Shown: piece after piece, positions 5,201 to 42,655 of the stretch | Numbering within the stretch: the first letter of the stretch is position 1 | How the letters are laid out: every line of letters begins with the position of its first letter | Virus record (IMG/VR): IMGVR_UViG_2778261542_000002 | Span: 1-57,194 of that record | DNA length: 57,194 nt | Source of the DNA: a virus | Lineage: Duplodnaviria; Heunggongvirae; Uroviricota; Caudoviricetes | Strand: one strand, 5' to 3' | Notes under the pieces: generated by a model | Database searches by the model: none | Told to the model about the DNA's origin: nothing | Seen by the model: only the letters and a program-made list of their open reading frames with translations | Translations under genes and position numbers: made by a program

Positions 5201-5542
5201 CATTTATCCAATGGCATGGAATCGAAATCAGTCGATACCCGCAGTTTATATCGTGAACTGGGTGCAACGCTGAGTTACAACATGCGTCTGGGGAACGGTA
5301 TGGAAGTTGAGCCGTGGCTGAAGGCGGCTGTGCGCAAAGAATTTGTCGATGATAACCGGGTGAAAGTGAATAGTGACGGTAATTTCGTCAATGATTTGTC
5401 GGGCAGACGTGGAATATACCAGGCAGGTATTAAAGCCTCATTCAGCAGTACGTTAAGCGGGCATCTTGGGGTGGGGTATAGCCATGGTGCCGGTGTGGAA
5501 TCCCCGTGGAACGGGGTAGCTGGTGTGAACTGGTCGTTCTGA
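2287..5542 (+). pseudogene. AIDA-I/Ag43-type autotransporter adhesin, disrupted by frameshift with truncated beta-domain
   Basis: Signal-peptide-like start MNRTSPHYCRRSVLSLLISALIYAPPGMAA; ~950 aa of degenerate G-rich passenger repeats (NGG.Q.V..GG); frame-1 stop at 5185-5187; a different frame continues from 5171 to 5542 and ends in the canonical aromatic C-terminus NWSF; beta-domain far shorter than a full ~280-aa barrel. Confidence 0.6.
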
Positions 5543-5694
5543 CCATCAACGAAAAAGCCCACATCTGTGGGCTTTCATGTCACCAGGAGCCGCGGCTCCT
5601 TTGCGTATCCTTTTATGTCTCTTCACCGTCTGGTCGGTGTCCTGCTGAGACTGCTAACTTCCTGTTTTTATTGGTGTTGTCCTTATACCGTCCA

Positions 5695-5720
5695 ATCATG
5701 ATTGGCTGGCGGAGTTTGAA
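5695..5720. repeat. degenerate left copy of the att core (imperfect direct repeat of 17464-17496)
   Basis: ATCATGATTGGCTGGCGGAGTTTGAA versus ATCATGATTTGGTGGAGCTGGCGGGAGTTGAA at the integrase-proximal end. Confidence 0.35.
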
Positions 5721-5773: not shown

Positions 5774-5796
5774 CGTATACCTAATCGTATACCAAT
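5774..5796. repeat. 23-bp motif CGTATACCTAATCGTATACCAAT, possible integrase arm-type site (copy 1)
   Basis: Near-identical copy (one mismatch) at 17339-17361 in the same orientation, each just inside an att-like repeat. Confidence 0.3.
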
Positions 5797-5857: not shown

Positions 5858-6156
5858 GAAAAAAATTTTTTTTCGGAAGAACTGTTCACACTGTTCACCT
5901 TTCTGTTTTTTCCTTTTATTTCAGTTGGATAGGTGGTGAATAATGGGTGAAGGGTGAACATTCGATTCTTCACCTCCGGCATTCTGCCGGTGTGACTCAT
6001 ACCGGCGATTAATCCTCCGCACTGAAAATCACACAGGAAGAAAAAAAGTTTTTTTTGATTTGATTGTTCACACTGTTCACCTTTCGTTTTTCTCTTTTGA
6101 TTTCAGTGTGATAACGGGTGAACATACGGTGAAGGGTGAACACTGGATTGTTCACC
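5858..6156. repeat. crr-like cis replication region: two ~115-bp direct repeats carrying TGTTCACC iterons
   Basis: Repeat units at about 5858-5974 and 6038-6156 are near-identical; each contains TGTTCACACTGTTCACC and GGGTGAAGGGTGAACA; sits just 3-prime of alpha, as crr does in P4. Confidence 0.55.
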
Positions 6157-6171
6157 TTCGGGGGATTCAGG

Positions 6172-6199
6172 GATGAAAAAAGACCGGCAGATGCCGGTC
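6172..6199 (-). terminator. putative rho-independent terminator of the alpha operon
   Basis: Perfect palindrome GACCGGCA/TGCCGGTC followed on the minus strand by a T-run, 17 nt after the alpha stop. Confidence 0.4.
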
Positions 6200-6215
6200 A
6201 GATGAGTCATGATGG

Positions 6216-8549
6216 TCAGGTTGTTGCAGGGTCGTCACATTTTGGCAGCCAGTCGCCGTAGCTTTCCTCTTTCAGCGTCAGGTTGGTCTGTATCCCCTGT
6301 TTGGTATGGCGCTTCTCGTAATTCAGTCCGTATTCCTTCAGCATCACCGGCAGCCCCAGCCCGAACATTTTCAGACTGAGTACATTCCGGTAGCCGTTTG
6401 CCTCCATGTAGGCCAGATAGGCGTGATAGAGGTATTTACGGTAATTACGCGGGATGATACTGGCGTTCCCCATATACATGCCGCTGGTCTGCGGCAGGGT
6501 TTCCAGATAGCCGATAAAATCAAACGTCGGGTCGGCATCCCGTTTGATGTTCAGTGCCTCGTCTGAGTTCTGCTGGGACTGAAGCAGTGACCGGGCGAGC
6601 ATCGGGTCGCTGAACTTCTGCATCAGGTGACGCACGATGACCGCCAGCTCGCGGGTGATTTTGTCCTTAAGCTGCGGGTCGCGCTCCTGCGGGGCTATCT
6701 GTTCCGGGAAGTGAATAATCACCCGCCGGCGTGACACGCCGCCGCTGCGGTCGGTGAAGCGCATCGGGTTATTGTTCACGGCCAGAATTACCGCCGGGAT
6801 GTGCGTGGAGTACGCATCCCGGTATTTCGGGTCAACGGACACCGCATCGCCGCCGGTGATGGCCTTGAGTCCGGCTCCGTCGCCGCTCCATTTTTCCTGG
6901 TCCGGCAGGCGTATCAGTGAGAAGCCAGTTAACGCGGCACGTTCACGCGGGGATTCCAGCGTCTCGATGGTGGCCGACGTGGCGTTATCCTCACCAGCCA
7001 GCAGGGTGGCTATTTCGGCCATGATACTTTTGCCGCTGCCGCCGGGACCGGTCACCTCCAGAAAGAGCTGCCAGTCGTAGCGGTTTGCCAGCACCATAAA
7101 CAGTGCGGCCAGAATCACGTCGCGTTTTTCCGCACGGCCACCGGCGGCACGGTCAAGCCAGCGCCAGAACGCGGGGGCGTGGGTCTCCAGTGTTTCACCG
7201 TCCACCGGCGGGGTGAAATCCACATCGCACAGGGTGCGCATCCAGTGTGACGGACTGTGCGGGTGGAACGTGCCGTTCTGCGTGTCGAGCACGCCGTTAC
7301 GAAAGCCAATCAGGCGGCGGGAGGGGGCTTCCTGCTGCGGAATAATCAGCTTCAGGGTGTCCACCACGGAGGCCACCTTCCCGGAGGAGAACGGCGCGCG
7401 CAGACGCTGAAACAGCCCGGCCACATCCCGGGCAAAGTCCTGTGGTGGCAGCACCTTCCAGACACCATTTTCATAGCGGGACAGAAGCTGGCCGTTGGCA
7501 TCAACCGCGAGCGCCTCGCCGTAATGCTCATAGATACGCATGGCCTTTTCGCTGGTACTCATGGCGGAAAACTCCGCTTCGCTCATGGTGTCGAACGGGC
7601 TTTCAGCCGGTGGCCGGATGGCATCGTAAATGGCCTTACGGGTGGCCTCCCCGCCGTACTGCGTGAAGGCATCATTCCAGTCACCGAAGACCGGCGGCAG
7701 GGCAACAACGCCCTCACACGCATCTGCGGCTGCGGCGGCTTTTGTCTGGCCGTCACCGCTGAGGTCACGGTCTGCGGCAAGGACAATCTGACAGGCCGGA
7801 TACTTCTGTCGGGCAAGGCTGGCCAGAGAAAGGAGGTTCACGGAAGAAAGCGCCACCATCACCGTTTCACCGGTCAGGTGATGCACGGTAAGTGCGGTCG
7901 CGTATCCCTCCGCTATCCACAGACGTTTTCCTGCCTGATTCTGTCCTTCAAGGGTGTGACAGGTGCCCCTGACCTGTCCGCCTTTCAGGGTGCGCTTACG
8001 GCCGTCAGCACTGATTAACTGAAGGTTAACCAGTTCGCCGCTGTCGTCATACAGTGGCACCACAAGGTCACCGGCGCGCCAGCTCACGCCACCGGCTCTG
8101 TGTGTGCCGGTCAGCATCCGGCATTCCCGGCCGGGAAAGCCCTTGCGGGTCAGGTAGGCGTTACCGGTTCCGGGACGGGTTTTTGCCATCAGGGTTTGTG
8201 CCAGTGCGGCGGCGTTCTTCCGGGCGGCTTCTGTTTCAGCACCGGCGGCGGCCGTCACTGCCGGGTCAGCCGGGGGCAGGCAGCCGGTCACGGCAGCCAC
8301 CTTTGCGGCCGCGTCGGACGGGGAAACACCAAACACCTTTTCAACCAGTTTCAGGCCGTCACCGGCACCACACTGATTGCAGTACCAGGTGCCACGCCCC
8401 TCCCTGTCATCAAAACGGAAGCGGTCACTCCCGCCACAGACCGGACAGGGCTGATGACGGTTCTTCAGCACCTGAATCCCCAGCGCCGGGAGAATACGCG
8501 GCCAGTGGCCGAGCGCATGGCTGACGGTGGCGGTTACGTTCATTTTCAT
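6216..8549 (-). CDS. alpha: P4 alpha-type primase-helicase (777 aa)
   Basis: N-terminal zinc-binding primase motif CPVCGGSDRFRFDD...WYCNQCG; Walker A GPGGSGKS; length identical to P4 alpha; flanked by iteron clusters. Confidence 0.9.
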   Translation of the reverse strand: MKMNVTATVSHALGHWPRILPALGIQVLKNRHQPCPVCGGSDRFRFDDREGRGTWYCNQCGAGDGLKLVEKVFGVSPSDAAAKVAAVTGCLPPADPAVTAAAGAETEAARKNAAALAQTLMAKTRPGTGNAYLTRKGFPGRECRMLTGTHRAGGVSWRAGDLVVPLYDDSGELVNLQLISADGRKRTLKGGQVRGTCHTLEGQNQAGKRLWIAEGYATALTVHHLTGETVMVALSSVNLLSLASLARQKYPACQIVLAADRDLSGDGQTKAAAAADACEGVVALPPVFGDWNDAFTQYGGEATRKAIYDAIRPPAESPFDTMSEAEFSAMSTSEKAMRIYEHYGEALAVDANGQLLSRYENGVWKVLPPQDFARDVAGLFQRLRAPFSSGKVASVVDTLKLIIPQQEAPSRRLIGFRNGVLDTQNGTFHPHSPSHWMRTLCDVDFTPPVDGETLETHAPAFWRWLDRAAGGRAEKRDVILAALFMVLANRYDWQLFLEVTGPGGSGKSIMAEIATLLAGEDNATSATIETLESPRERAALTGFSLIRLPDQEKWSGDGAGLKAITGGDAVSVDPKYRDAYSTHIPAVILAVNNNPMRFTDRSGGVSRRRVIIHFPEQIAPQERDPQLKDKITRELAVIVRHLMQKFSDPMLARSLLQSQQNSDEALNIKRDADPTFDFIGYLETLPQTSGMYMGNASIIPRNYRKYLYHAYLAYMEANGYRNVLSLKMFGLGLPVMLKEYGLNYEKRHTKQGIQTNLTLKEESYGDWLPKCDDPATT

Positions 8550-8563
8550 GGTGTTGTTCTCCT

Positions 8564-8884
8564 TCAGTGCAGTACCGGCGCTTTTATGTGACGGGCACAG
8601 AGTTCATCCATCACAACCAGCCCGAGAAAGGACAGCGACGGCGCGGCCTTCAGGGGGCCGGATTCCATTAAATCTTCCAGCAGGGCACAGGCTATCTGAC
8701 GCCCTTTTTCCTCACCGTGCTGGCGCAGATAAAAGCCTTCCAGCTCAGCGGCGATGGCCGCCTCCAGTGACTCAAGGGTGAGATGCGGGTAGCGGTGCTG
8801 ACGTTCGCACACGGTCAGCCAGGCACAGGCGACAGCGCGACGGTAAAGGGCAGCGCGTAAGACGGGCGGTAAGGGTGTTTTCAT
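8564..8884 (-). CDS. hypothetical protein (106 aa) in the alpha operon
   Basis: ORF in operon context between the 151-aa ORF and alpha; no motif recognised. Confidence 0.55.
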
Positions 8885-9019
8885 TTGTTTTCCTCCCTGT
8901 GACAGATGACTGCATTCCGTGCCGGTTGCATTAACTGATAAGGCATATCTGCGTCTCCTGAAGACGTGCGTATCCCTGCGCGAATACGCACATTTAATTT
9001 TTCGGGTATCGTTTTTTAA

Positions 9020-9475
9020 TTACAGATAATTGCGGTAACTGTTATCCGGGGTGATTTCCGGGTCAGGCTCCGTGCGGGGAATTTCCCGCCATTCCCGCGC
9101 CACCGGTGCCGCCCGGCTGGCCGGAACAGTGTCCTGCGGGTAAATATCCAGATATTTCTCCCGCCATTTCTGTAATTCCGGGTCTCCGGCCATTTCTTTC
9201 AGTACCGCATGCCGGTTTACGGGGCTGCGTTTAAACAGGTCAGGACGGTCACAGGTAAATTCCCGCAGAAAACGCCCCAGCGGGATGTCTGTGGTGCGCC
9301 CGTCATCGAGGATACGCACAAGGATACTGAATTTACGGCGGTACGGGTTCCAGACAATGTCCGGGCAGCGGTACGGCATTTCCCACGGAATACCGTCTTC
9401 CAGAATGCCGACCACGGCCACATCGGGAAAACCGGCAGAACGGTAAATCTCACCGGGCTGGGGAAAATCAAACAT
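9020..9475 (-). CDS. hypothetical protein (151 aa), size-matched to P4 orf151
   Basis: ORF in operon; start overlaps the stop of the upstream gene (ATGTTTGA). Confidence 0.6.
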   Translation of the reverse strand: MFDFPQPGEIYRSAGFPDVAVVGILEDGIPWEMPYRCPDIVWNPYRRKFSILVRILDDGRTTDIPLGRFLREFTCDRPDLFKRSPVNRHAVLKEMAGDPELQKWREKYLDIYPQDTVPASRAAPVAREWREIPRTEPDPEITPDNSYRNYL

Positions 9476-9755
9476 GCGTCCTGTCTCCCCGGTCTTTCTG
9501 CTGGGCGAGAAAATCGCGGCACAGGCCTTTGGCTTTCAGCTCATTCAGCACAAAATCAATATCTTCATTCAGGTAGCTGAAAATATGCGGAATGTAGAGC
9601 TGATGCAGGCCGGAGAGTTCACGGTGAATCAAATCACCCCCAACAAACTGGGATACGGCGCTGGCGCGGTTGAGCTTATGGTAAGCCTCAATGCTGAGGT
9701 GTTCACGGGCGTCATGACGTGCTGAGACGGTCTGAGGGGCTTTTTTATTACGCAC
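9468..9755 (-). CDS. epsilon-like small protein (95 aa), GTG start
   Basis: GGAGGTG Shine-Dalgarno 5 nt before GTG at 9755; positioned where P4 encodes the derepression protein epsilon; identity to epsilon not verified. Confidence 0.45.
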
Positions 9756-9945
9756 GGGACACCTCCACCACCGGCAGACGGGCAGCAAGGGAGAGCACAT
9801 AGTCACGGACAAGGGAACGGCGGGCGCTGCGTTCATCACCGGCGACGGTGCGAAGCATGCAGATACGGGGATGACGGTCTGCGCGACGGACAGCCGCAAA
9901 CACAAAGACAAATTCAGGGTGTGAGGGGGTAAGGGTTGTAGCCAT
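9748..9945 (-). CDS. small hypothetical protein (65 aa)
   Basis: ATG at 9945 preceded by GGAGG with 7-nt spacing; stop overlaps the epsilon-like GTG (GTGCGTAA); the longer 211-aa ORF upstream is not supported. Confidence 0.3.
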
Positions 9946-10334
9946 AAGGCAGCCTCCTTCGAGTAGCAAATAACTGCTATCGCCGGAGTTCTCACGCTCG
10001 ATGGCGATAGCCCAGACGGGGGTGAGAATACCGGCCTCGAAGAATACCGGCCAGCCCGGAGGCTGCCCCGCCTGAGCTACCATTGACTCAGTGGCATAAC
10101 ATGCGATTGCGAACAGGATCATACCTGCACGGCAAACCACACGCCACACCATAATCTGGCGCTCTGTGGCGTTGATTGCGACACAAAAAAAGACGCATGG
10201 CGCGTCATATGTCGCCTTCGAGTTACACGGGTTCTCACGCCCGGCTGCCGATTTTGCGGCAGCGGAAAAACTATATCCGCAAATGCCGGAAAAAGGCAAG
10301 CCAGAAAAAGGGACTTTTTGCAGAACAGGCATCA

Positions 10335-10601
10335 TCATGCGTCGTACCCCCGTTTGCGTCCGGCAATGCGGCCGGCCATCCATGCGGTGACTTCAGAGTG
10401 CAGCCAGGCCACATTTTTACCGCCAAGACTCACCTGCGGCGGAAATTCCCCCTTACGGATGAGTTCATAGATGGTCGAGCGTGACAGGCCGCACAGGTGC
10501 ATCACTTCCGGAAGACGTAAAAAACGCTCCTGTGTGATGTCCGGCAGCGGCATCAGTGGCGTCACAGGGGCGGGAGACGGGGAAGAAAAAACAGCTTGCA
10601 T
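10335..10601 (-). CDS. alpA: AlpA-family phage transcriptional regulator
   Basis: HTH segment [50 protein letters not shown] typical of AlpA; Shine-Dalgarno GAGGT before the ATG. Confidence 0.8.
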
Positions 10602-10750
10602 CGGGCTACCTCGTTAATGTCCATACAGCACCGGATAAGTCCGTCCGGCTTCGGGTAGCGCTTTATTTTGTGAATATTTTCAGCAGACGCAACAGGGGGG
10701 ATTTGTTCCGGCAGCCTTACAATGGTTGTGTGTTTTTTGTTCATTTCCAC

Positions 10751-10780
10751 TTAAAGTCATTTAAAGCCACTTAAAGCAAT
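10751..10780. repeat. three tandem 10-bp repeats TTAAAG(T/C)CA(T/C) upstream of the alpA-alpha operon
   Basis: TTAAAGTCAT TTAAAGCCAC TTAAAGCAAT in helical phase; candidate operator. Confidence 0.3.
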
Positions 10781-10880
10781 TTGTAATTTTTATAGTGAAA
10801 TACAAATCGTTTCTTCTTATTCATTCCCGGCGAATTAATAAAAACAAACAGTAGTAAACAGCACAAAAAGTCCATGAGCG

Positions 10881-10985
10881 GGTGAACAGTGGTGAACAGA
10901 CGGTGAACAGTCATTACTGCGATTGTTCATCCTTTAACTTACTGTATTACTTATCTTTTTTATTAAGGTGAACAGAGGTGAACAG
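10881..10985. repeat. ori-like iteron cluster (five GGTGAACAG = TGTTCACC reverse complement)
   Basis: Three tandem GGTGAACAG at 10881-10910, two more at 10967-10985, plus inverted GATTGTTCATCC; lies ~4.8 kb from the crr cluster with alpha between, as in P4. Confidence 0.55.
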
Positions 10986-11063
10986 TAAAATATAAAAAAA
11001 CAAACAGTAAGCCGGTTTTTCCTGCGACCTTTTCCTGGCTTGCCGGTGTGAGGATGAGTCTCC

Positions 11064-11081
11064 TGTGTCAGGGCTGGCACA
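11064..11081 (+). promoter_or_regulatory. TGT-N12-ACA dyad, candidate Ogr/Delta activator site of the sid late promoter
   Basis: TGTgtcagggctggcACA centred ~80 bp upstream of the sid ATG; P2/P4 late promoters use this dyad. Confidence 0.4.
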
Positions 11082-11153
11082 TCTGCAATGCGTCGTGTTG
11101 CTGTCCGGTGTACGTCACAATTTTCTTAACCTGAAGTGACGAGGAGCCGGAAA

Positions 11154-11888
11154 ATGTCTGACCACACTATCCCTGAATATCTGAAACCCGCACTGGCACA
11201 ACTGGAAAAGGCCAGAGCCGCCCATCTTGAGAACGCCCGCCTGATGGATGAGACCGTCACGGCCATTGAACGGGCAGAGCAGGAAAAAAATGCGCTGGCG
11301 CAGGCCGACGGAAACGACGCTGACGACTGGCGCACGGCCTTTCGTGCAGCCGGTGGTGTCCTGAGCGACGAGCTGAAACAGCGCCACATTGAGCGCGTGG
11401 CACGCCGGGAGCTGGTACAGGAATATGACAATCTGGCCGTGGTGCTGAATTTTGAACGCGAACGCCTGAAAGGGGCGTGTGACAGCACGGCCACCGCCTA
11501 CCGGAAGGCACATCATCACCTGCTGAGTCTGTATGCAGAGCATGAGCTGGAACACGCCCTGAATGAAACCTGTGAGGCGCTTGTCCGGGCAATGCATCTG
11601 AGCATCCTGGTACAGGAAAATCCGCTCGCCAACACCACCGGCCATCAGGGCTACGTCGCACCGGAAAAGGCTGTCATGCAGCAGGTGAAATCATCGCTGG
11701 AACAGAAAATAAAACAGATGCAAATCAGCCTCACCGGCGAGCCGGTTCTCCGGCTGACCGGACTGTCAGCGGCAACACTCCCGCACATGGATTATGAGGT
11801 GGCAGGCACACCGGCACAGCGCAAGGTGTGGCAGGACAAAATAGACCAGCAGGGAGCAAAGCTTAAGGCCAGAGGACTGCTGTCATGA
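11154..11888 (+). CDS. sid: Sid-like capsid size-determination protein (244 aa)
   Basis: GAGGAG Shine-Dalgarno; 244 aa as in P4 Sid; position sid-delta-psu; helical, Ala/Glu/Gln-rich. Confidence 0.75.
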   Translation: MSDHTIPEYLKPALAQLEKARAAHLENARLMDETVTAIERAEQEKNALAQADGNDADDWRTAFRAAGGVLSDELKQRHIERVARRELVQEYDNLAVVLNFERERLKGACDSTATAYRKAHHHLLSLYAEHELEHALNETCEALVRAMHLSILVQENPLANTTGHQGYVAPEKAVMQQVKSSLEQKIKQMQISLTGEPVLRLTGLSAATLPHMDYEVAGTPAQRKVWQDKIDQQGAKLKARGLLS

Positions 11889-12385
11889 TTTACTGCCCGT
11901 CGTGTGGACATGTTGCTCACACCCGTCGCGCACATTTCATGGACGATGGCACCAAGATAATGATTGCACAGTGCCGGAATATTTATTGCTCTGCGACATT
12001 TGAAGCGAGTGAAAGCTTTTTCTCTGACTGTAAAGATTCAGGAATGGAATACATTTCAGGCAAACAGAGATACCGCGATTCACTGACGTCAGCCTCCGGC
12101 AGCATGAAGCGCCCGAAAAGAATGCTTGTTACCGGATATTGTTGTCGGAGATGTAAAGGCCTTGCGCTGTCAAGAACATCGCGGCGTCTGTCTCAGGAAG
12201 TCACCGAGCGTTTTTATGTGTGCACGGATCCGGGCTGTGGTCTGGTGTTTAAAACGCTTCAGACCATCAACCGCTTCATTGTCCGCCCGGTCACGCCGGA
12301 CGAGCTTGCAGAAAGCCTGCATGAAAAACAGGAACTGCCGCCAGTACGGTTAAAAACACAATCATATTCGCTGCGTCTGGAATGA
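11885..12385 (+). CDS. delta: Delta-type late-gene transactivator (166 aa, two Ogr-like zinc-finger repeats)
   Basis: Two Cys clusters (CPSCGH...C..IYC and CCRRCKG...CTDPGCG), the P4 Delta duplicated-Ogr architecture; 166 aa. Confidence 0.8.
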   Translation: MIYCPSCGHVAHTRRAHFMDDGTKIMIAQCRNIYCSATFEASESFFSDCKDSGMEYISGKQRYRDSLTSASGSMKRPKRMLVTGYCCRRCKGLALSRTSRRLSQEVTERFYVCTDPGCGLVFKTLQTINRFIVRPVTPDELAESLHEKQELPPVRLKTQSYSLRLE

Positions 12386-12458
12386 GGGCTGCCGGTTAAC
12401 ACCGGCCGTCGCCGCACACCGTATTTTTATTCTTCAGCATGATGAGAAAGAGATAACG

Positions 12459-13031
12459 ATGGAAAGCACAGCCTTACAGCAGGCCTTTGACACCTGTCAG
12501 AATAACAAAGCAGCATGGCTGCAACGCAAAAATGAGCTGGCTGCGGCCGAACAGGAATATCTGCGGATTCAGTCAGGAGAAGGCAGAAACGTCAGTCGCC
12601 TGGACGAATTACGCAATATTATCGAAGTCAGAAAATGGCAGGTGAATCAGGCCGCCGGTCGTTATATTCGTTCGCATGAAGCCGTTCAGCACATCAGCAT
12701 CCGCGACCGGCTGAATGATTTTATGCAGCAGCACGGCACAGCACTGGCGGCGGCACTGGCACCGGAGCTGATGGGCTACAGTGAGCTGACGGCCATTGCC
12801 CGAAACTGTGCCATACAGCGTGCCACAGATGCCCTGCGTGAAGCCCTTCTGTCCTGGCTTGCGAAGGGGGAAAAAATTAATTATTCCGCACAGGATAGTG
12901 ACATTTTAACGACCATCGGATTCAGGCCTGACGCGGCTTCGGTGGATGACAGCCGTGAAAAATTCACCCCTGCGCAGAACATGATTTTTTCGCGTAAAAG
13001 TGCGCAACTGGCATCACGTCAGTCTGTGTAA
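12459..13031 (+). CDS. psu: Psu-like polarity suppression / capsid decoration protein (190 aa)
   Basis: 190 aa as in P4 Psu; last gene before cos; sequence begins MESTALQQAF, as I recall for P4 Psu. Confidence 0.75.
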   Translation: MESTALQQAFDTCQNNKAAWLQRKNELAAAEQEYLRIQSGEGRNVSRLDELRNIIEVRKWQVNQAAGRYIRSHEAVQHISIRDRLNDFMQQHGTALAAALAPELMGYSELTAIARNCAIQRATDALREALLSWLAKGEKINYSAQDSDILTTIGFRPDAASVDDSREKFTPAQNMIFSRKSAQLASRQSV

Positions 13032-13066
13032 AATTCCCCGAAAATCCTCCCGTTTTTACTGAAAAA

Positions 13067-13106
13067 AGCCATGCATCGATAAGGTGCATGGCTTTGCATG
13101 CGTTTT
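13067..13106 (+). terminator. putative terminator after psu
   Basis: 9-bp perfect stem AGCCATGCA/TGCATGGCT followed by a T-containing tract. Confidence 0.3.
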
Positions 13107-13195
13107 CCTGCCTCATTTTCTGCAGACCGCACCATTCCCGGCGCGGTCTGAGCGTGTCAGTGCAACTGCATTAAAACCGCCCCGCAAAGCGGGCG

Positions 13196-13334: not shown

Positions 13335-16076
13335 ATGGCCAGGCCGTTACCACTGAATAAAGATTTGATAGTTTGTGTACCTAGTAATTATTCCAATACC
13401 TCGAGAGGGAAGTTTTTCGAGAATTTTTGCGCTGATATACTCCGCCGGCAATCGTATAGAATTGATGGTATGGAAGTCAGAAAATCTGGCATGGAAATTG
13501 ATATTCAGGCTACTCATACACCATCAAATGAAAAGCTGTATGTAGAATGTAAATTCATGCAGCAAAAAGTTGATTCATCTGTGGTTGATTTGGCATTTTC
13601 TCAAGCATTTAGGTTGAGAGTTAAAAAAATTGCACTTTTTTCAATTTCTGATTTGGGTAAAGATGCTCAGTCAACGCTTGAGGATTATAGACTTGATGAG
13701 CGTATAGATTATTCTTTTTTTGATAAAAAAGAGATTCTTATATCTATACTTGCAACAGGTAAGGTTGAGGATATTCCAACAGATGACATTCCGGCAAAAT
13801 ATACTAGTGCAACACTTTTAGTTCATCCTGAAATAGAAATGACTTGGCTTTTGCAAGAAGTTGAAAATGGTAGCCCTATAAGAGTGGTGCCGTTCGCTAT
13901 AAATAAAAATAGTAAAATTCCAAGTGTCAGTCGCATAAGTGATATTATAAAGGAGCAAGGGCTTTTTGAAGGGTTGGAAGTAACTGATTTTTATATATTA
14001 TCTGAACCGGAACAAACTGTTTCGTCTTCAAAATTATCTGAAAATTACGAAAGGGAAATTGTCAGTGAAATAATTCTTGCTGACGATTTTATGGATTATA
14101 AGCCATGTCAGCCGAAAGACTTTGTTGGTCGCGAATATATACAGAAAGAAGTTTGGGATTATCTTGAGAATGTTAGAGGAAATAGCTCTCAAAGTAGAGT
14201 CCTATCACTTATAGGCGGTTCAGGAAATGGAAAGTCATCTTTAATAGCAAGGCTATCCTCAAGATTTAAAAATCAAAAATGGAAGAATAAATTCTTCCTT
14301 ACACCAGTCGATGTCCGTTCTGCTAGAGGCGGACGTTTTGTGGCAGAAGCTGTCGTTAAAGCTTTCAGCAGTGCGATCAAAGAAGGTTTTATCGAATATG
14401 AAAAACCATTCCTGATTGAGAGTGTTACGGATATCATAGGATCTGAGAGTGTTCAGGAATGTTTAAAATACCTTTCCGAACATGATAAGGTATTGACTAT
14501 TTTCTTTGATCAGTTCGAAGAAGTCTTTATGAAAGAGGAACTATTCGGGCTATTTAAAGAATTTGAACGATTCGCACTCGATGTCTCGGCACTACAAAGC
14601 AATTTAGTTGTAGGGTTCTCATGGAGAACTGGTATTACTTTAGGGGATGAAAATCCAGCGTACTCAATGTGGAATCGGCTAAAAGATTATAGGGTTGAAA
14701 AGAAACTTGAGCCTTTTGATCTAAAAGATTCATCTAAATTAATTAATAGTTTCGAGCTAAATACAGGGTTTAAATTAAATAAACCTTTACGCACGCGTCT
14801 TATTCAGCAAGCTCAAGGTTATCCATGGTTATTGAAAAAGCTTTGTATTCATGTATTCAAAAAACTAAAAGGAGGTATCTCACAGGATCAAATGTTGGTT
14901 AGTCAACTACAGATCTCAAATTTATTTCATGAGGATTTAGATAGGCCTGAAAAACAAAATTCATGTTTAAAATTTGTGGCAAAGAACTCTCCGATTAGTC
15001 AATATGAAGTTACTAAAGAGTTTGGGAGTGATACTGTTTTAGAGCTAATTTCAGATAGGATGGTAATTAAAACAGGTGAAAAATTATCAGTGTATTGGGA
15101 CGTTTTTCGAGATTACTTGAAAGGAAATGACCTTCCAGTTATACCATGGTCATATATGCCATCAACATCTCCGAAAATGGTTTTGTTAATTCTTGATGTT
15201 GTAAACTCGTTCAAAACCATTAGCTTGGATGAACTGCAAACTAAACTAAAATATAGTCGGGGAACATTAATAAATGTTTTAATGGATTTGCAGTATTTTG
15301 TTCTCATAGACAGAGATTTAAATGGGAATATAGTTTGTAAACAGACTATCACAAATGTCCCTGAGTTTCTTCGTGAGCATTTTAAGAGTCATAGTGTTTT
15401 GTTAGAATTGGCAGAGAATATTGTTGATGCCGATTTAAGAAGAGTTCCTATCGATAAGTATGAATCTATAATAGCCCATACTTATAAGAATAAAGACGGT
15501 GGTTATCCTAAGTCTTATAGTTCAAAATTATTGGCTTGGTTACAATTTACGGGGCTGATAGCGGTTATCGGGAAATCTGTGGTTATATATGATGGCGAGT
15601 TGTTTTCCCCAGCATTTGGGGCGATTGATCTAGATAAAAGAGGGGCACGCAATAGAAGAGGATCACTTTTCTTAGCTGCTACTTCGCCAGAAAAAACACT
15701 CGAAGTTGCCGAGTATCTGTGCGCCAATAAAAAAATGAGCCATTCATTCATTCAGGCGAATAAACATAGGAATGCAGTGCAGGATTTAATTTCTTTAGGT
15801 TTTTGTTCTCGACAAGATGATGGTGTGGTGATAAATAATAAAATAGAAGTTATATTAGAAAGCATCAGCCTTGAAAGGGCTTTAGCTAGGTTAGTCACTG
15901 AATCTCCAGCTATCAAAATATTAAATGCTTATGTAAATAAATTTGGCGATGATGATAAGAAAATGATGGGGGCAGCACTAGCAAAAGAACTTGAGAGAAC
16001 ATGGACACCTGCATCTACTACTAGATATATTTATGCACTAATGAGATATCGAAATTTCGCATTGGAAACTTTATAA
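13335..16076 (+). CDS. 913-aa fusion protein: N-terminal Mrr-type PD-(D/E)xK nuclease signature + STAND-type P-loop NTPase + ~350-aa C-terminal region; candidate antiviral gene
   Basis: AAGGAG Shine-Dalgarno; AT-rich in a GC-rich element; N-terminus FENFCADILRRQSYRIDGMEVRKSGMEIDIQA...LYVECKF (Mrr catalytic pattern); DFVGRE lead-in, Walker A LIGGSGNGKSS, Walker B LTIFFDQFEE, GYPWLL (GxP-like). Confidence 0.85.
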   Translation: MARPLPLNKDLIVCVPSNYSNTSRGKFFENFCADILRRQSYRIDGMEVRKSGMEIDIQATHTPSNEKLYVECKFMQQKVDSSVVDLAFSQAFRLRVKKIALFSISDLGKDAQSTLEDYRLDERIDYSFFDKKEILISILATGKVEDIPTDDIPAKYTSATLLVHPEIEMTWLLQEVENGSPIRVVPFAINKNSKIPSVSRISDIIKEQGLFEGLEVTDFYILSEPEQTVSSSKLSENYEREIVSEIILADDFMDYKPCQPKDFVGREYIQKEVWDYLENVRGNSSQSRVLSLIGGSGNGKSSLIARLSSRFKNQKWKNKFFLTPVDVRSARGGRFVAEAVVKAFSSAIKEGFIEYEKPFLIESVTDIIGSESVQECLKYLSEHDKVLTIFFDQFEEVFMKEELFGLFKEFERFALDVSALQSNLVVGFSWRTGITLGDENPAYSMWNRLKDYRVEKKLEPFDLKDSSKLINSFELNTGFKLNKPLRTRLIQQAQGYPWLLKKLCIHVFKKLKGGISQDQMLVSQLQISNLFHEDLDRPEKQNSCLKFVAKNSPISQYEVTKEFGSDTVLELISDRMVIKTGEKLSVYWDVFRDYLKGNDLPVIPWSYMPSTSPKMVLLILDVVNSFKTISLDELQTKLKYSRGTLINVLMDLQYFVLIDRDLNGNIVCKQTITNVPEFLREHFKSHSVLLELAENIVDADLRRVPIDKYESIIAHTYKNKDGGYPKSYSSKLLAWLQFTGLIAVIGKSVVIYDGELFSPAFGAIDLDKRGARNRRGSLFLAATSPEKTLEVAEYLCANKKMSHSFIQANKHRNAVQDLISLGFCSRQDDGVVINNKIEVILESISLERALARLVTESPAIKILNAYVNKFGDDDKKMMGAALAKELERTWTPASTTRYIYALMRYRNFALETL

Positions 16077-16083
16077 TTATTAA

Positions 16084-16107
16084 ATCATAGGGCGAAAGCC
16101 CTATGAT
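16084..16107. terminator. bidirectional hairpin between the convergent 913-aa gene and int
   Basis: Perfect 10-bp stem ATCATAGGGC/GCCCTATGAT with GAAA loop, T-rich flank. Confidence 0.4.
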
Positions 16108-17288
16108 TTTACTTTTATACCCCACCATGACATCAATTCTCTGCGTTGTTCTAAATAAATAGAACGATTATACGCCCGCCGTACTTCATTTTTATCTATA
16201 TGCGCTAAAGCTGATTCTATAATATCGGAATTAAAACCAGACTCGTTCAACGCTGTGCTAGCTATAGAACGAAGCCCATGAGCAACGAGTTTACCGCCAT
16301 AACCAATCCTTTTAAGAGCAGCATTAGCAGTTTGGCTATTCATAGGTTGTTTAGGATCATTCCTGCTGGGAAAAACATGTTCTCGGTGAGCGCTAATTGG
16401 CTTCATTACATCCAGAATCTCTAATGCCTGTGGTGATAAAGGAACAATGTGTTCCCGCTTAGCTTTCATCCGTTCGGCTGGAATAGTCCAGAGCTTCGTA
16501 TCGAGATCGATCTCTGCCCAACGGGCACCAGAGGCCTCAGAAGGGCGCACGAGCGTCAGGAGTTGCCATTCAATGAGACAGCGAGTCGGAACAGACAGAT
16601 TTGACATGACTAAAGAACGCATCAGCTTCGGCAATTCTTCTGGCCGCAGCGTCGGCATGTTTTGTTTTTTGGGCTTCTCAAAGGCCATTCCAATACCTGA
16701 TGCTGGATTGGCATCAATCAGACCAGTGTTTACGGCATAAATCATTATCTCGTTAATACGCTGCACTAGTCGACGTACAGTCTCAAGCGCTCCACGAGCT
16801 TTGATTGGTTCCAATGCTTCAACTAATATTCGGGCTTTAATTTGCTGAACGGGGATCTCACCGATGGCAGGGAATACATCTTTCTCCAATGAGCGCCAAA
16901 TGTCTTTTGCGTAATCAGGGGTAACGCTTTTACTTTTGAGCTGGAACCAGTTAGCGGCGACCATTGAGAAAATACTGTCCAGAGCGATTTGCTGCTGTTC
17001 CTCTGCAACTTCGGCCTGAATTTGTGGGTCAATTCCGTTGGCTAACAAGGCAAGGTAATCCGCTCTTAACCCTCGGGCGTCAGCAAGTGAAAGGGCGGGG
17101 AAAGCACCAAGCCCCATCATTGTCCGCTGTTTTGTCGCTGGACGTTGATAACGGAAACGCCAGAGCTTTTTCCCGCTGGTTTTCACTATCAGGAAAAGGC
17201 CATCGCCATCATGCAGAGTTAGATCCTTCTCTAACGCTTTAGCGCGAAGAACTTCGGTGTTGGTAAGGGGGCGTGTTGTCCGTGCCAC
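16101..17288 (-). CDS. int: P4-type tyrosine integrase (395 aa)
   Basis: Catalytic-domain boxes (LTLVRPSEASGARWAEIDL; HGLRSIASTAL...RAYNRSIY); adjacent to att core; GTG start. Confidence 0.9.
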   Translation of the reverse strand: MARTTRPLTNTEVLRAKALEKDLTLHDGDGLFLIVKTSGKKLWRFRYQRPATKQRTMMGLGAFPALSLADARGLRADYLALLANGIDPQIQAEVAEEQQQIALDSIFSMVAANWFQLKSKSVTPDYAKDIWRSLEKDVFPAIGEIPVQQIKARILVEALEPIKARGALETVRRLVQRINEIMIYAVNTGLIDANPASGIGMAFEKPKKQNMPTLRPEELPKLMRSLVMSNLSVPTRCLIEWQLLTLVRPSEASGARWAEIDLDTKLWTIPAERMKAKREHIVPLSPQALEILDVMKPISAHREHVFPSRNDPKQPMNSQTANAALKRIGYGGKLVAHGLRSIASTALNESGFNSDIIESALAHIDKNEVRRAYNRSIYLEQRRELMSWWGIKVKS

Positions 17289-17338
17289 TGTGGCCGCTCC
17301 TTCATGAATTGGTATACGCTTTTAGGTATACATCCTAC

Positions 17339-17361
17339 CGTATACCTAAACGTATACCAAT
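17339..17361. repeat. 23-bp motif CGTATACCTAAACGTATACCAAT, possible integrase arm-type site (copy 2) within a cluster of GTATAC repeats
   Basis: Direct repeat of 5774-5796; additional GTATAC copies at 17311-17336. Confidence 0.3.
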
Positions 17362-17402
17362 AATCACCGGATTTAGCCGGATGTTCTCGGACAACGACAG
17401 AC

Positions 17403-17437
17403 ACAAAAAAGCCCGCAGGGCTTGTGCCATGCGGGCT
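17403..17437 (-). terminator. rho-independent terminator between att core and int
   Basis: AGCCCGCA/TGCGGGCT stem followed on the minus strand by TTTTTT; positioned as a tmRNA-gene terminator would be. Confidence 0.45.
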
Positions 17438-17472
17438 TTCTGTACTTCACCGGACGTATCCGGATCATGATT

Positions 17473-17503
17473 TGGTGGAGCTGGCGGGAGTTGAACCCGC
17501 GTC
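17473..17503 (-). other. att core identical to the 3-prime 31 nt of ssrA (tmRNA); the tmRNA gene itself is absent
   Basis: Minus strand reads GACGCGGGTTCAACTCCCGCCAGCTCCACCA, the tmRNA acceptor/T-arm end as I recall it; upstream sequence does not continue as tmRNA. Confidence 0.7.
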
Positions 17504-17628
17504 AAAATTTATATAATCTTTTGTAAAATATACGTTTTTTCTATTGTTTTTGATCCGCGTATACTTCGCGTACACTTTGCCATTTGAACTTAAACATGCT
17601 GCCGTCGCTACATCATGACATGTTATTT

Positions 17629-18315
17629 TTACTTCTCATTTTCAAAGTCATCACGAATGTTAATTAGATCTGTAATCAAAGCGCCAACTTTAGTTGAAGG
17701 ATTTATCGAACCGTCTTTTTTGGCGGCATCTTCGACTCTTTTAGCATTGATTAATGCCGTATCGAGCCGATCTTGCAATTTATTAAATACACCTGATGCC
17801 TTTTTCTCATAATCTGGCATGTATTTTTTTAACTCAGCTAGCATTTGTGCGCCTTCACTTTTGCCTTTCTGAGGTGAAAATGATTTTCGGGTGTATCCAA
17901 AATGTAGTATCAGCCAGTACTCGAAACATGGTATGGAAGTTATAGCAACAAAAATCCCTTTTGGATTTAAGGAATTAATCCTGCTAAGAGCTTCATCATA
18001 GTTAGGGTGAGCGTCTCTATCAAAGACACAATAAACCTTATCATAAGGGTCGCTCCTTTTTTTTTCCGTATTATATTTTTCTTTTGCCCAAGATACCACA
18101 TTCATAGGGCTTGAGCCGCACTCTCCAGAAATCTCAACTATGCTTGCCGTGCTTATACGGCAATGTTTTATAAAATCTGTAAAATATGCGGGCTCAGTCT
18201 TCTCTCCCTCACAGACGATAAGAATTTTCTTCATTTGAGCTCGTGCTTTACTAACTCGTTTGAATTCATTATTACGCCGAGCCTTTCTTTTTTTGAACAG
18301 ATCTTCGCTTCCCAT
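17629..18315 (-). CDS. RloB-like protein (AbiLii-like partner of the ATPase)
   Basis: N-terminal ILIVCEGEKTEPAYF and CVFDRDAHPNYDE acidic motifs, read as RloB/Toprim-like; likely start is the ATG overlapping the upstream stop (TAATG), preceded by GGGAGAG. Confidence 0.65.
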   Translation of the reverse strand: MGSEDLFKKRKARRNNEFKRVSKARAQMKKILIVCEGEKTEPAYFTDFIKHCRISTASIVEISGECGSSPMNVVSWAKEKYNTEKKRSDPYDKVYCVFDRDAHPNYDEALSRINSLNPKGIFVAITSIPCFEYWLILHFGYTRKSFSPQKGKSEGAQMLAELKKYMPDYEKKASGVFNKLQDRLDTALINAKRVEDAAKKDGSINPSTKVGALITDLINIRDDFENEK

Positions 18316-19580
18316 TAATATCTCTCCCATTTCCCAATGAGTGGTAAAGCCCCATATCTACCGTCAAGATAAGAAGCTTCTAAATTCTCCCTTCCTTTTC
18401 TTGGACTAAAATCCGTAAGTGGGAAAAGATTTGTTTGCTTTGAATTGTCTTTTTCTACAAACCAAATCTGATCTCGTCTGAAAACATCTTGATTTAAAAT
18501 AGACGTCTCATGAGTTGTAAAGATTAACTGGGCACCATTCTTATTGATATTTTTATCGTGAAATAAACCTACAATAAACTCAACTAATTTGGGGTGTAAG
18601 TTATCATTTAATTCATCAATAAACAGGATGTTTCCTGTCTCGAGTGAATGTGATAAGGGACCCGCGAAACTAAAGATTTTTCTAGTTCCATGCGATTCAT
18701 CTTTTAAATCGAATGGAATTGGCTCTCCATCCTCATTATTATGAAGTGTTTTAATGACATATTCTTCCTTGCCTTGCATATTCTTAATCACTAGTTCCTT
18801 GATGGCTGCAGGCATATCATCAGGAAGAGCATTGGGATTGAATTTTTCTTTTGTTACATGAATGTCATCAATACCTACATCGGCAGCTTTTAAAAAATTG
18901 AGAATCTCATCTTTCTTATCATTTAAGCATTGCTTTGCACTGTAATCACTATCCCAACCTGTTAATTCAGTAAATTTAACTTTGTAATAAAACCAATCGT
19001 ATACAGGTTTTAGTTGTACACTGTTTAATTGTACCGCTGTAGAAAGAAAGAGCGCATTAGGCCTGGTTGATTTCAACCATGTTTGTTTTTCTCCTGTCAA
19101 CGATGGCCCCAACTCCCATTCATGGGTTTGTTTTTCTTCATCCCATAGACGTAAAAACCATTTTTGTGGTCTGCCTTTGGGGAATGCAAATAACCATTCG
19201 TCGTGAATAAAATCTTCTGTTGCAGAAAAACCATACTGGTATCTGATGCCTTCGGAAATAAAGTTAATTTCAAATTCAGATGGTTGATTAATCTTCTTTG
19301 AGTCTAGTCTAAAAGGCGTGATATCAAGTTTATCACCACTTTTATAACCTGTAGCAGACCGGACAATAAGTTCAGCCATAGTTGTAATAGCGTTAATAAT
19401 GTTTGATTTTCCGGCAGCATTAGGGCCATAAATCACAGCACTTTTAAGCAATTCAAGAGATTTAGGTTCATCAATACTGAACAGATTATTAGGCAAATCG
19501 TTAAGTTTTGATGCAACTAAACTCAGTGTTTGTTTCTCTGAAATAGATTTATAGTTTTGTACTGTAAACTCAATCAACAT
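18315..19580 (-). CDS. ABC/AAA-type ATPase (AbiLi-like)
   Basis: Walker A GPNAAGKSN, Walker B ILFIDELNDNLHP, H-loop-like QLIFTTHETS; AT-rich; translationally coupled to the RloB-like gene. Confidence 0.8.
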   Translation of the reverse strand: MLIEFTVQNYKSISEKQTLSLVASKLNDLPNNLFSIDEPKSLELLKSAVIYGPNAAGKSNIINAITTMAELIVRSATGYKSGDKLDITPFRLDSKKINQPSEFEINFISEGIRYQYGFSATEDFIHDEWLFAFPKGRPQKWFLRLWDEEKQTHEWELGPSLTGEKQTWLKSTRPNALFLSTAVQLNSVQLKPVYDWFYYKVKFTELTGWDSDYSAKQCLNDKKDEILNFLKAADVGIDDIHVTKEKFNPNALPDDMPAAIKELVIKNMQGKEEYVIKTLHNNEDGEPIPFDLKDESHGTRKIFSFAGPLSHSLETGNILFIDELNDNLHPKLVEFIVGLFHDKNINKNGAQLIFTTHETSILNQDVFRRDQIWFVEKDNSKQTNLFPLTDFSPRKGRENLEASYLDGRYGALPLIGKWERY

Positions 19581-19770
19581 AATTTATACCCTTTTAACTT
19601 CCCATAGCTTAAAAACCACTAAAAGTGATTTTATAGCACAAATTTGACAAAAAACGTCAAATCTTTGCATTTAATGCACACTAAAACCATTGTACACTAT
19701 CCTCATCATCCTGCTAACATTCTTGTAAGCTTTACTGTTTTGCGAAGGGGGGCTAGTGCTATCGGGCGTT

Positions 19771-20967
19771 TTACTTCTCAATTTTCATGTTCTCCGGATT
19801 TTTTGATACTTGGTCCTTACAAGCTGTCTTGCCATCATAGTCTACGAGATACGAACCATAATGCCTGAAAAGCATTTCCGGCCCTTTATGCCCCATTTGA
19901 GCTGCAAGCCAAAACAGATTTGCTCCTCGGCTGATATGGCTGGTGGCGAATGTATGCCTAGTTTGATATGGATTTCTGTATCGAATACCTGCTTTCCGTA
20001 ATGTTGGCACCCATGCTTTTTTCCTGATTGCATCAGCACTTGCCCAAGGCTTATTGGTCTTTGGGTCTTCAAAGACAGTAGCATCCTTCATGAATGTAAA
20101 TGGCTTCTGATTTATCAGCGCCAACATAGCCTCTTCTGTCAGTTCAACTTTACGAGTACCGGCTTTTGTCTTTGTTCCTTTGATAACACCGACAACACTT
20201 GCACTCTGGACATGGGCAGTTTTTCCAACAAAGTCGATATCACGCCATCTAAGGGCACATAATTCAGAACTACGCAGGCCTGTATGTATAGCGAACCGGA
20301 ACAGATTCTCCCATTGTTTGTTTCCGGCTGCTGCTAGTAATGCATCAACTTCTGTTGGTGATAGCGGATCAACCACGTAGCAGCTTTCTGCTTCTGACTT
20401 ATCACTTTGGTAGCGCGAAGCAGTTACCAACGATACGGGGTTAATTTGAAGTACCCCATCGGTTACGGCTTCATCAAGTGCTGACCGCAGGAAAGATAAC
20501 TGGTTGCGAATTGTTTTTAAGGTCGTTTTCTGGCTTTGAATCCACGCTTTCAGGATTGCTGGTGTTAATTCACTTGCAGGGCAAATGTGGAGTGAGGCTA
20601 ACGCACTGCGGCATTTTTTATAACCACCAATCGTTGAGGGTGAGAGTTTTCTCGTTTCGCAGATTTCAAGGTATTCGTCCAGGTACATTTTTACCGTTTT
20701 GCCTGCAGCAGCATTACCAAAAATTTTCAAACGAGCAGAACGGGGAAAATATTCCGCATAAATGAATGTTCCCCTTTCGATCTTATTATGAATTTCGCCG
20801 AGTGTGCGCTCGGCGTATTTAATGTTCTTTGGTGTTACTTCCAGATTGGAAAGAGGCTCACGACATTTAACTCCTTTGTAGGTGAAAGTTATATTGATCG
20901 TTTCGCCCTGGCGGTGTTTCCTGATTGTTACGCCGCGCGGTAGTTTGAGCAGTTTTGTCTGGCCCAT
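19771..20967 (-). CDS. int: phage tyrosine integrase (398 aa)
   Basis: Catalytic boxes TGLRSSELCALRWRDID and RHTFATS...LAAQMGHKGPEMLFRHYGSY. Confidence 0.9.
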   Translation of the reverse strand: MGQTKLLKLPRGVTIRKHRQGETINITFTYKGVKCREPLSNLEVTPKNIKYAERTLGEIHNKIERGTFIYAEYFPRSARLKIFGNAAAGKTVKMYLDEYLEICETRKLSPSTIGGYKKCRSALASLHICPASELTPAILKAWIQSQKTTLKTIRNQLSFLRSALDEAVTDGVLQINPVSLVTASRYQSDKSEAESCYVVDPLSPTEVDALLAAAGNKQWENLFRFAIHTGLRSSELCALRWRDIDFVGKTAHVQSASVVGVIKGTKTKAGTRKVELTEEAMLALINQKPFTFMKDATVFEDPKTNKPWASADAIRKKAWVPTLRKAGIRYRNPYQTRHTFATSHISRGANLFWLAAQMGHKGPEMLFRHYGSYLVDYDGKTACKDQVSKNPENMKIEK

Positions 20968-21146
20968 TTTGCAACCTCACTAAGATCAATCCACCTCTCC
21001 TTAACGCCTTCAACCTTTAAAACCTGAACACCTTCACGCCAAACACCGCGCTGTACACGTTTGTTTATTGCTTCAGGAGTTTCGCCAGTTTCTTTGCAAT
21101 AAGTTGAGATTGGAACACAATCGAGGTTCAGCATATGTTTCTCCAC
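20928..21146 (-). CDS. xis: excisionase-like protein
   Basis: Small basic protein just upstream of and overlapping int; CKETGETPEAINKRVQRGVWREGV winged-helix-like segment. Confidence 0.6.
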   Translation of the reverse strand: MEKHMLNLDCVPISTYCKETGETPEAINKRVQRGVWREGVQVLKVEGVKERWIDLSEVAKWARQNCSNYRAA

Positions 21147-30274: not shown

Positions 30275-30844
30275 TCATTCTTTATCTTTAATTATAAGTT
30301 TCGATTTTTCATCATGCATTTTGTCTATCATAAAATACATACCTAATGCCGTTGTGTATATAATGTTGCATATGGTACTTAAATAAATAAACAAAAGTAA
30401 TGATTTCACTAGTGGATATGATGAAAGGTGTAACTCCTTGATGCTTGCGCTGGTTAGTTGAAGTGCGCCTCCAACGAAATACAGCGCGATACTCATAAAC
30501 GCTAAATAACCAAATAGATAAGTGAGGAATTTACGCCTTGTAAGTTTTTTACCTTTTAATACCGGAGGTATGCCATGCATAACTTCATCCATACCATCCT
30601 TACTGAAGGTTGCAACTGCAGCCATAGATGCAATGTAAAAACCAGATAGTATTTGAAGTATCCCGTTTACTAAAGACACAAGACTATCCTTCCCGAGAAG
30701 TGAGATGGTTTTCGGTAAGTAATAGATGGATAAAGTAATAATTGCAGCAGTGAAAATGGGTAAAACCCAGTCAAAAAATCGCTTCTCAGGATGCTTTATG
30801 CGTAGGTAGTCTATAGGTGTAAAAACCTTAGATAAAACATACAT
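30275..30844 (-). CDS. small four-pass membrane protein (189 aa) - cargo gene 2 of the Q-lysis cassette
   Basis: AAGGAGG Shine-Dalgarno before ATG at 30844; four hydrophobic ~20-aa segments; AT-rich; opposite strand to the phage late operon. Confidence 0.6.
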   Translation of the reverse strand: MYVLSKVFTPIDYLRIKHPEKRFFDWVLPIFTAAIITLSIYYLPKTISLLGKDSLVSLVNGILQILSGFYIASMAAVATFSKDGMDEVMHGIPPVLKGKKLTRRKFLTYLFGYLAFMSIALYFVGGALQLTSASIKELHLSSYPLVKSLLLFIYLSTICNIIYTTALGMYFMIDKMHDEKSKLIIKDKE

Positions 30845-30876
30845 ATATGCCTCCTTTTGACAGGTTTTCCATGCCT

Positions 30877-40626: not shown

Positions 40627-40675
40627 TCACTCAGGGGCGCGGAACCGCGCCCCCTGTTCTGACGGGTGAAGAATC

Positions 40676-40876: not shown

Positions 40877-40878
40877 GT

Positions 40879-42647: not shown

Positions 42648-42655
42648 GAATCTTC

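Follow-up and report, generated by a model that had tools for sequence, protein, structure and literature searches.

Results

A copy of the ssrA 3' end that lacks the tmRNA body

The locus described here lies in a window of 57,194 nucleotides (the whole stretch of DNA that was analysed) and is built around a 31-nt sequence, TGGTGGAGCTGGCGGGAGTTGAACCCGCGTC, that occurs a single time in the window, at positions 17473-17503 on the plus strand. Its reverse complement matches the last 31 nt of the ssrA gene of EC1722-1, the closest complete genome, at 31 of 31 positions, and 100 shuffles provided no match even when up to three mismatches were allowed. In the minus-strand direction, three features lie downstream of the 31-mer: first a small hairpin, then a strong terminator hairpin that, together with its U-run, extends from 17439 to 17405, and finally the integrase gene int1. 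The features next to the 31-mer on this side are:

17473-17503, minus strand: identical to the final 31 nt of ssrA; putative composite att core (prophage attR and satellite attL)
17405-17439, minus strand: intrinsic-terminator hairpin with U-run (fold z = -4.4, terminator scan), putative P' arm of the satellite
16101-17288, minus strand: int1, P4-type tyrosine integrase (Pfam Arm-DNA-bind_3, Phage_int_M, Phage_integrase), transcribed away from the att core

A 109-nt stretch with the terminator hairpin has a folding energy of -45.8 kcal/mol (z = -4.4), and a pattern scan independently places a terminator-like site at 17439 to 17405. The hairpin is 94% identical over 36 nt to the one located between ssrA and intA in K-12, and it would terminate ssrA whenever the element that carries int1 adjoins ssrA directly. 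An Rfam match to IsrM at 17405-17482 (minus strand) was rejected as a gene; it is weak (39 bits versus a gathering score of 376) and covers only the terminator hairpin.

The DNA on the other side of the 31-mer does not continue into a tmRNA. ARAGORN detected no tmRNA from 17504 onward, and Rfam at its gathering score reported none in the window. In E-value mode, the Rfam tmRNA model reached 31 bits versus a cut-off of 47, with an alignment that is confident at the 3' end only; we regard its sub-threshold extension over 17504-17870 as a forced global alignment and not as a tmRNA body. When the full ssrA gene was used as a BLAST query, positions 17472-17503 were the sole match in the window, and the approximately 30 nt upstream of the 31-mer retain no more than a faint, AT-shifted likeness to ssrA. 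Further copies of the ssrA core, for instance at the tail-fibre end of the prophage described below, were found in the window neither with up to three mismatches nor by short BLAST searches. The preliminary description of this DNA had reported a perfect tmRNA 3' end beside a P4-type integrase, a terminator hairpin behind it, and sequences unrelated to the tmRNA body from 17504 onward; in all these respects it was accurate.

A P4-derived satellite to the left of the 31-mer

The DNA between the 31-mer and position 5721 is occupied by a relative of phage P4:

5721-17472, minus strand: P4-derived satellite, ~11.7 kb, with crr/ori, alpha primase, immunity RNA, sid, delta, psu, cos, Mrr+nSTAND1 cargo and int1
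5774-5795, minus strand: 22-nt motif TTGGTATACGATTAGGTATACG in the satellite P arm, candidate arm-type Int site
17339-17360, minus strand: second copy of the 22-nt motif, TTGGTATACGTTTAGGTATACG, in the satellite P' arm, candidate arm-type Int site

Positions 5860-13195 are 97.7% identical to coordinates 4291-11624 of P4 (X51522), a match that spans alpha, crr/ori, the immunity region, sid, delta, psu and cos; the gene names used for the satellite are those of the PGAP annotation of EC1722-1, which is 99.94% identical there. The element hence possesses the replication, immunity and helper-exploitation genes of P4 together with cos, and its P4-type integrase gene adjoins the att site and is transcribed away from the target gene, as is characteristic of P4-like satellites. 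Within the P4-identical part, Rfam matches to C4 antisense RNA, isrK and c4-a1b1 above the gathering score were recorded at 10000-10276 (minus strand), which presumably is where the immunity (CI RNA) region of P4 lies. According to Pfam, the remaining third of the satellite encodes a 913-aa Mrr + nSTAND1 protein in addition to Int1. The gene for the former (13335-16076, Mrr_cat and nSTAND1 NTPase domains) constitutes cargo that is also found in MCJCHV-1. Int1 is 62% identical to IntA of K-12 and is annotated as WP_000124712.1 in both EC1722-1 and MCJCHV-1.

The 22-nt motif TTGGTATACGnTTAGGTATACG is present in just two copies in the window, one immediately inside each end of the satellite and both in the same orientation, and was absent from 100 shuffles. 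We presume that this pair represents arm-type integrase sites to which Int would bind.

In the genome of MCJCHV-1, the same satellite (98.9% identity over 11,968 nt) stands by itself between ssrA and glaH; the order there is smpB, ssrA, int1 ... alpha, attR, glaH. Moreover, a chimeric query in which intact ssrA was fused to window positions 17472 to 16700 was recovered in one piece from 375 of the 5426 complete E. coli genomes that served as the reference collection for all configuration counts, with 100% identity over 1136 nt in many of them. Together with the satellite-only site of MCJCHV-1, these genomes argue that the terminator hairpin and everything else to the left of the 31-mer is, as judged from such alignments, the ordinary ssrA-proximal arm of the satellite.

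The distal end of the satellite and the chromosomal DNA next to it

At the opposite end of the satellite, a second and strongly eroded copy of the ssrA 3' end borders on chromosomal DNA:

5703-5720, minus strand: decayed ssrA 3' core TTCAAACTCCGCCAGCCA; putative satellite attR and distal end of the whole array, assigned by comparison with the attR of MCJCHV-1
5300-5702, minus strand: native ssrA flank (B') with a terminator-like hairpin at 5552-5575; runs into the ypjA autotransporter remnant

The core TTCAAACTCCGCCAGCCA is read from 5720 to 5703 on the minus strand and is followed by ATCATGATTGG. The attR of the satellite in MCJCHV-1 reads TTCAAACTCCGCCAGCTCCACCA; relative to it, 5 nt have been lost from the core in the window, and likewise from the copy in EC1722-1. 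A degenerate repeat at the far end of the element had been noted before with a gap of 9 nt; the degeneracy is real, and the gap, the size of which depends on how this core is aligned to ssrA, comes to 5 nt when the attR of MCJCHV-1 is taken as the reference. The core at 5703-5720 is homologous to 'psaA', a 14-nt pseudo-ssrA that is annotated in K-12 at the attR of the cryptic prophage CP4-57, and which bears a 1-nt deletion in the same CAGCTCCACCA stretch that is affected by the 5-nt loss in the window.

A comparison of the empty site with the attL and attR of the satellite-only genome revealed a 16-nt block, CCGCCAGCTCCACCAA, that is common to all three. Provided that no mutation has occurred since integration, the crossover catalysed by Int1 must lie within this putative exchange block. 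The 5-nt deletion in attR falls inside it; because the loss sits within the Int1 crossover block, the satellite may no longer excise precisely and may be unable to excise alone.

When ssrA was fused directly to window positions 5702 to 5300, 1386 of the 5426 genomes contained this chimera in one piece, many with 100% identity over 766 nt. The same flank is 96.4% identical over 249 nt to the DNA that flanks the attR of CP4-57 in K-12. The annotation of EC1722-1 places ypjA, ypjC, ileY, ygaQ and glaH to the left of the array, and in K-12 these are the genes that lie past the far end of the ssrA-linked CP4-57. Judged by these matches, the segment from 5702 to 5300 is the native DNA that follows ssrA, and the locus is a genuine ssrA locus.

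An LLS-like prophage to the right of the 31-mer

The DNA that takes the place of the tmRNA body belongs to a second element:

17504-57194, strand not specified: LLS-like contractile-tailed temperate prophage, ~41 kb; runs off the right edge of the window and ends ~1.5 kb further on at an intact ssrA in EC1722-1
17504-17628, minus strand: putative P arm of the prophage attachment site; beside the core, ~30 nt resemble tmRNA in a decayed form; 11-nt tandem repeats at 17556-17577
17629-19580, minus strand: AbiLii (RloB, 17629-18330) and AbiLi (AAA_21 ATPase, 18315-19580), identified by Pfam and PADLOC
19771-20967, minus strand: int2, prophage integrase (Pfam Arm-DNA-bind_2, Phage_integrase), transcribed toward the att core

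In the annotation of EC1722-1, the prophage begins with int2, then has a small ORF where an excisionase gene would be expected, yfdR/S-like genes, and the genes for a repressor and Cro; it continues with replication genes, Q, and the genes for lysis, terminase, portal, capsid, sheath, tube and baseplate, and it ends with fibre genes, an invertase remnant and the genes for a GIY-YIG protein, a methyltransferase and a restriction endonuclease, beyond which ssrA and smpB are located. With this gene content, the DNA from 17504 to the end of the window looks like an entire contractile-tailed temperate phage. Int2, the gene of which lies just past the AbiL pair and had been overlooked in the preliminary description, shares 86% identity over 382 aa with the putative integrase encoded by LLS, a free phage. 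Int1 and Int2 possess different arm-binding domains, and each of the two elements is thus equipped with an integrase of its own.

The segment at 17504-17628 is contiguous with the AbiL genes and int2 in genomes that carry a different island on the other side, and the block composed of hairpin, 31-mer, AbiL and int2 adjoins a different P4-type-integrase island in other genomes. That the int2/AbiL block is found beside other islands argues that the P arm belongs to the prophage and not to int1. The 11-nt tandem repeats CGCGTATACTT and CGCGTACACTT (17556-17577) located within it are candidate arm-type sites for Int2. It had been proposed earlier that an attP half abuts non-ssrA DNA at this junction, and this view is correct, the DNA at 17504-17628 representing the P arm of the adjacent prophage.

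One could also envisage that the P4-like part and the prophage form a single mobile unit with an internal tmRNA pseudogene, given that the two parts are adjacent, have the core in common, and that the junction int1-31-mer-AbiL-int2 recurs in five genomes. We consider such a composite element extremely improbable, since the satellite is found alone at ssrA in MCJCHV-1, prophages of the int2 type adjoin other islands elsewhere, and the two parts have separate integrases and separate arm repeats. In addition, LLS is a free phage of 42.9 kb, the 10 kb around its attP are devoid of P4 genes, and the phage matches listed for the satellite do not include LLS.

Several observations concern the cargo of the prophage. 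Defence genes are situated on both sides of its att site, AbiLi/AbiLii next to int2 and a second set in the other arm (54586-57194). PADLOC recognised AbiLii (3e-29) and AbiLi (4e-101) in genes that are adjacent and overlapping, so that the pair at 17629-19580, already described as AbiL-like, fits the definition of an AbiL defence system and is predicted to be one. In strain AR_0369, DarT/NADAR genes are present in place of AbiL. The region 54586-57194 encodes PD-T4-3 (GIY-YIG, 3e-140) and a type II methyltransferase, the restriction endonuclease of which lies just past the window. A low-GC (37%) insert of two genes at 30275-31812 (minus strand), just after the Q antiterminator gene, is classified by PADLOC as the candidate system PDC-M53A/B; it has no Pfam match, and the divergent stretch at 29.8-35 kb in which it is embedded attains a coverage of at least 80% in no genome of the complete E. 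coli collection. Other genomes carry Kiwa-like or caspase/TIR genes at this spot. Toward the cargo end of the prophage, a gene for a ClpP-like protease (53466-54020, minus strand) is placed between remnants of tail-fibre assembly genes and an invertase pseudogene.

An intact ssrA beyond the right edge of the window in the closest relative

EC1722-1 is colinear with the window, with 99.94% identity over positions 1-25654 and 99.36% over 40674-57194; between these two blocks, the middle of the prophage is mosaic. The region around the 31-mer (16000-21000) is 99.9% identical. In this genome, an intact ssrA on the minus strand starts 1478 nt past the position that corresponds to base 57194 of the window and is followed by smpB. 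Rightward from the last gene of the window, which encodes a cytosine methyltransferase, the order is type II restriction endonuclease, intact ssrA, smpB. The ssrA gene annotated there equals that of K-12 at 363 of 363 positions and has the same orientation as the 31-mer (minus strand), and the block of methyltransferase, restriction endonuclease and ssrA is found in one piece in 376 genomes. The window itself is without ssrA, and the position of the gene to the right of base 57194 is deduced from relatives whose identity to the window is 99.4-99.9% on either side. We infer that the tmRNA gene is missing from the window only as an edge effect, with ssrA ~1.5 kb past base 57194 in the closest relative. 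A regenerated target gene closes one end of the array in EC1722-1 and would do so in the source genome as well. The gene had initially been described as missing, which is correct for the window and does not hold for EC1722-1.

These data bear on two explanations for the apparent separation of the att core from its gene. Under the first, the target of the P4-type element was not ssrA but a similar sequence elsewhere, a view suggested in the preliminary description by the lack of a detectable tmRNA gene within the window and by the degenerate repeat at the far end. Such a secondary-site integration entails unrelated flanking DNA and an imperfect core. What we found instead is the native ssrA flank on the left, joined to ssrA in 1386 genomes, an intact ssrA of the same orientation that closes the array in the nearest relative, a core that matches perfectly over 31 of 31 positions, and, in place of the tmRNA body, the P arm of a type of prophage whose free relative carries this att site. 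The chance that the element sits at a pseudo-att site is hence minimal in our judgement.

Under the second explanation, an inversion, a deletion or an IS event that was not site-specific parted the att core from the body of ssrA. Beyond the absence of ssrA from the window, nothing speaks for it. The break coincides exactly with the boundary between core and P arm, as in the attP of phage LLS; there is neither an IS element nor a fragment of the ssrA body; the parts are all colinear and share one orientation, and ssrA is intact in EC1722-1. We therefore hold a rearrangement of this kind to be very improbable. The earlier suggestion of a tandem array rearranged by a neighbouring insertion was nonetheless right in its main point: a prophage with int2 does appear to lie between ssrA and the satellite, but the two are joined exactly at the att core, and nothing was rearranged.

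A duplicated flank of ssrA

The ~150 nt that follow ssrA are present twice in the array, once after the intact ssrA (in EC1722-1) and once at window positions 5702 to 5552. The two copies are ~85% identical over 175 nt and 96.7% identical over the first 120 nt. Only one copy exists in the satellite-only genome MCJCHV-1, and LLS, a free phage, has a further copy in its attP arm. The presence of the flank twice in the array versus once in MCJCHV-1 points to an arrival of the second copy with the attP of the prophage, as in LLS. In EC1722-1, the DNA behind ssrA resembles the LLS arm about as closely as it resembles native flanks (85-86% identity); the phage origin of this copy is read from copy number and context and not from its sequence. 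The idea that a hairpin variant, GCCCGCTTATGCGGGC, identifies a flank as phage-derived was discarded, as the native flank of MCJCHV-1 has a near-identical variant and the identities are alike (85-86%). The hairpin in this flank exhibits compensatory stem changes between alleles (GCCCGC/GCGGGC versus GCCCAC/GTGGGC).

Discussion

A tandem array in the tmRNA gene

We are highly confident that the 31-mer at 17473-17503 represents the internal junction of a two-element tandem array in the tmRNA gene of E. coli. Along the minus strand, the layout very probably reads smpB-ssrA, the ~41-kb prophage with int2 and AbiL, the 31-mer, the 11.7-kb satellite with int1, the decayed core, the native flank, and ypjA. 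Displaced ssrA 3' fragments in the same orientation mark both far ends of the elements, a perfect one at 17473-17503 and a decayed one at 5703-5720. The comparison with genomes that lack one of the elements, which the preliminary description had proposed as a check, proved informative: reference sites exist for the empty locus (1386 genomes), for the ssrA-int1 arm (375 genomes) and, in one of the latter, for the satellite alone (MCJCHV-1).

These findings lend themselves to a simple model. Both integrases would recombine within the last ~32 nt of ssrA, and the attP of each element would carry a 3' segment of ssrA, so that integration regenerates the gene and leaves a copy of the core at the far end of the incoming element. 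The 31-mer would thereby serve two roles at once, as attR of the prophage and as attL of the satellite; the segment at 17504-17628 would represent the P arm of the prophage, and the hairpin on the opposite side the P' arm of the satellite. The sequence identities, the layout and the reference configurations in other genomes are observed directly, whereas site-specific integration by Int1 and Int2, as well as the order of the two events, is inferred.

Both orders of insertion yield an identical end structure. It is likely that the satellite integrated first and that the prophage subsequently entered the regenerated ssrA; we favor this order because the ssrA-int1 arm exists in 375 genomes, whereas the prophage arm on the native flank exists in none. 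In the reverse case, the prophage would have integrated into ssrA first, and the satellite would later have entered the prophage attR (31-mer and native flank). Such a course of events is conceivable, as a second element may enter either of the restored cores (PMC7192596), yet it strikes us as rather unlikely: the prophage-only intermediate that it requires, in which the P arm on the AbiL side would adjoin the native flank directly, was detected in none of the 5426 genomes, and int2-type prophages elsewhere also sit between ssrA and different P4-type-integrase islands.

The array could also be viewed as more than two independent neighbours. The satellite might leave only together with the prophage via the outer sites, or it might depend on an LLS-like phage instead of a P2-type helper; we assign these ideas a very low probability. 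The same applies to a further part of this reading, namely that the prophage would uncouple the integrity of ssrA from the excision of the satellite.

The main use of our analysis is a correct annotation, since the edge of the window gave an ordinary tandem array the appearance of an orphan att site. In addition, both mobile elements are now delimited exactly: one is a P4 derivative whose integrase module has been swapped for an ssrA-specific one, the other an LLS-like prophage. Defence cargo is located on both sides of the prophage attachment site.

Comparison with known systems

A two-element array at the tmRNA gene is already known in kind and is an ordinary, well-documented arrangement. 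The mechanism and the signature of tandem integration have been described (PMC4383910, PMC7192596), and the Islander survey reported 125 tandems in 2168 genomes, with the tmRNA gene as the most enriched target (PMC4383910). The array studied here shares with those at tDNAs the regenerated target at one end, the 3' fragments of the same orientation at each element boundary, a tyrosine integrase for each element, and the tmRNA gene as the most enriched target. It does not differ from them in kind and constitutes one more instance with a particular pair of elements.

The closest counterpart at the same locus is CP4-57 at ssrA of K-12, with intA and 'psaA' at its attR. Locus, native flank and a P4-type integrase (62% identity) are common to both, as are a similar terminator hairpin after the core and a decayed attR core with a deletion in the CAGCTCCACCA stretch. 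CP4-57 has a size of 22 kb, whereas the element described here is an 11.7-kb P4 derivative that is parted from ssrA by a prophage, and the attR of CP4-57 has lost 1 nt, that of the satellite 5 nt.

Phage P4 itself agrees with the satellite at 97.7% DNA identity across alpha, crr/ori, immunity, sid, delta, psu and cos. The left 4.3 kb of P4 remain unmatched, and an ssrA-specific integrase and att site together with the Mrr+nSTAND1 cargo are found instead. The left end of P4 holds gop/beta/cII and a leuX-specific int and att site.

Phage LLS (PQ299149) displays the same order as the prophage, with yfdP/Q/R-like genes, xis, int, cargo, the tmRNA fragment/attP, the ~150-nt flank, cargo, the invertase gene and tail-fibre genes, and it has an annotated 'tmRNA pseudogene/attP' at the position that matches the P arm at 17504-17628 in the window. 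In the 10 kb of LLS that were compared, the two phages differ in the cargo on both sides of attP, which in the prophage described here consists of AbiL on one side and of PD-T4-3 and a type II restriction-modification system on the other.
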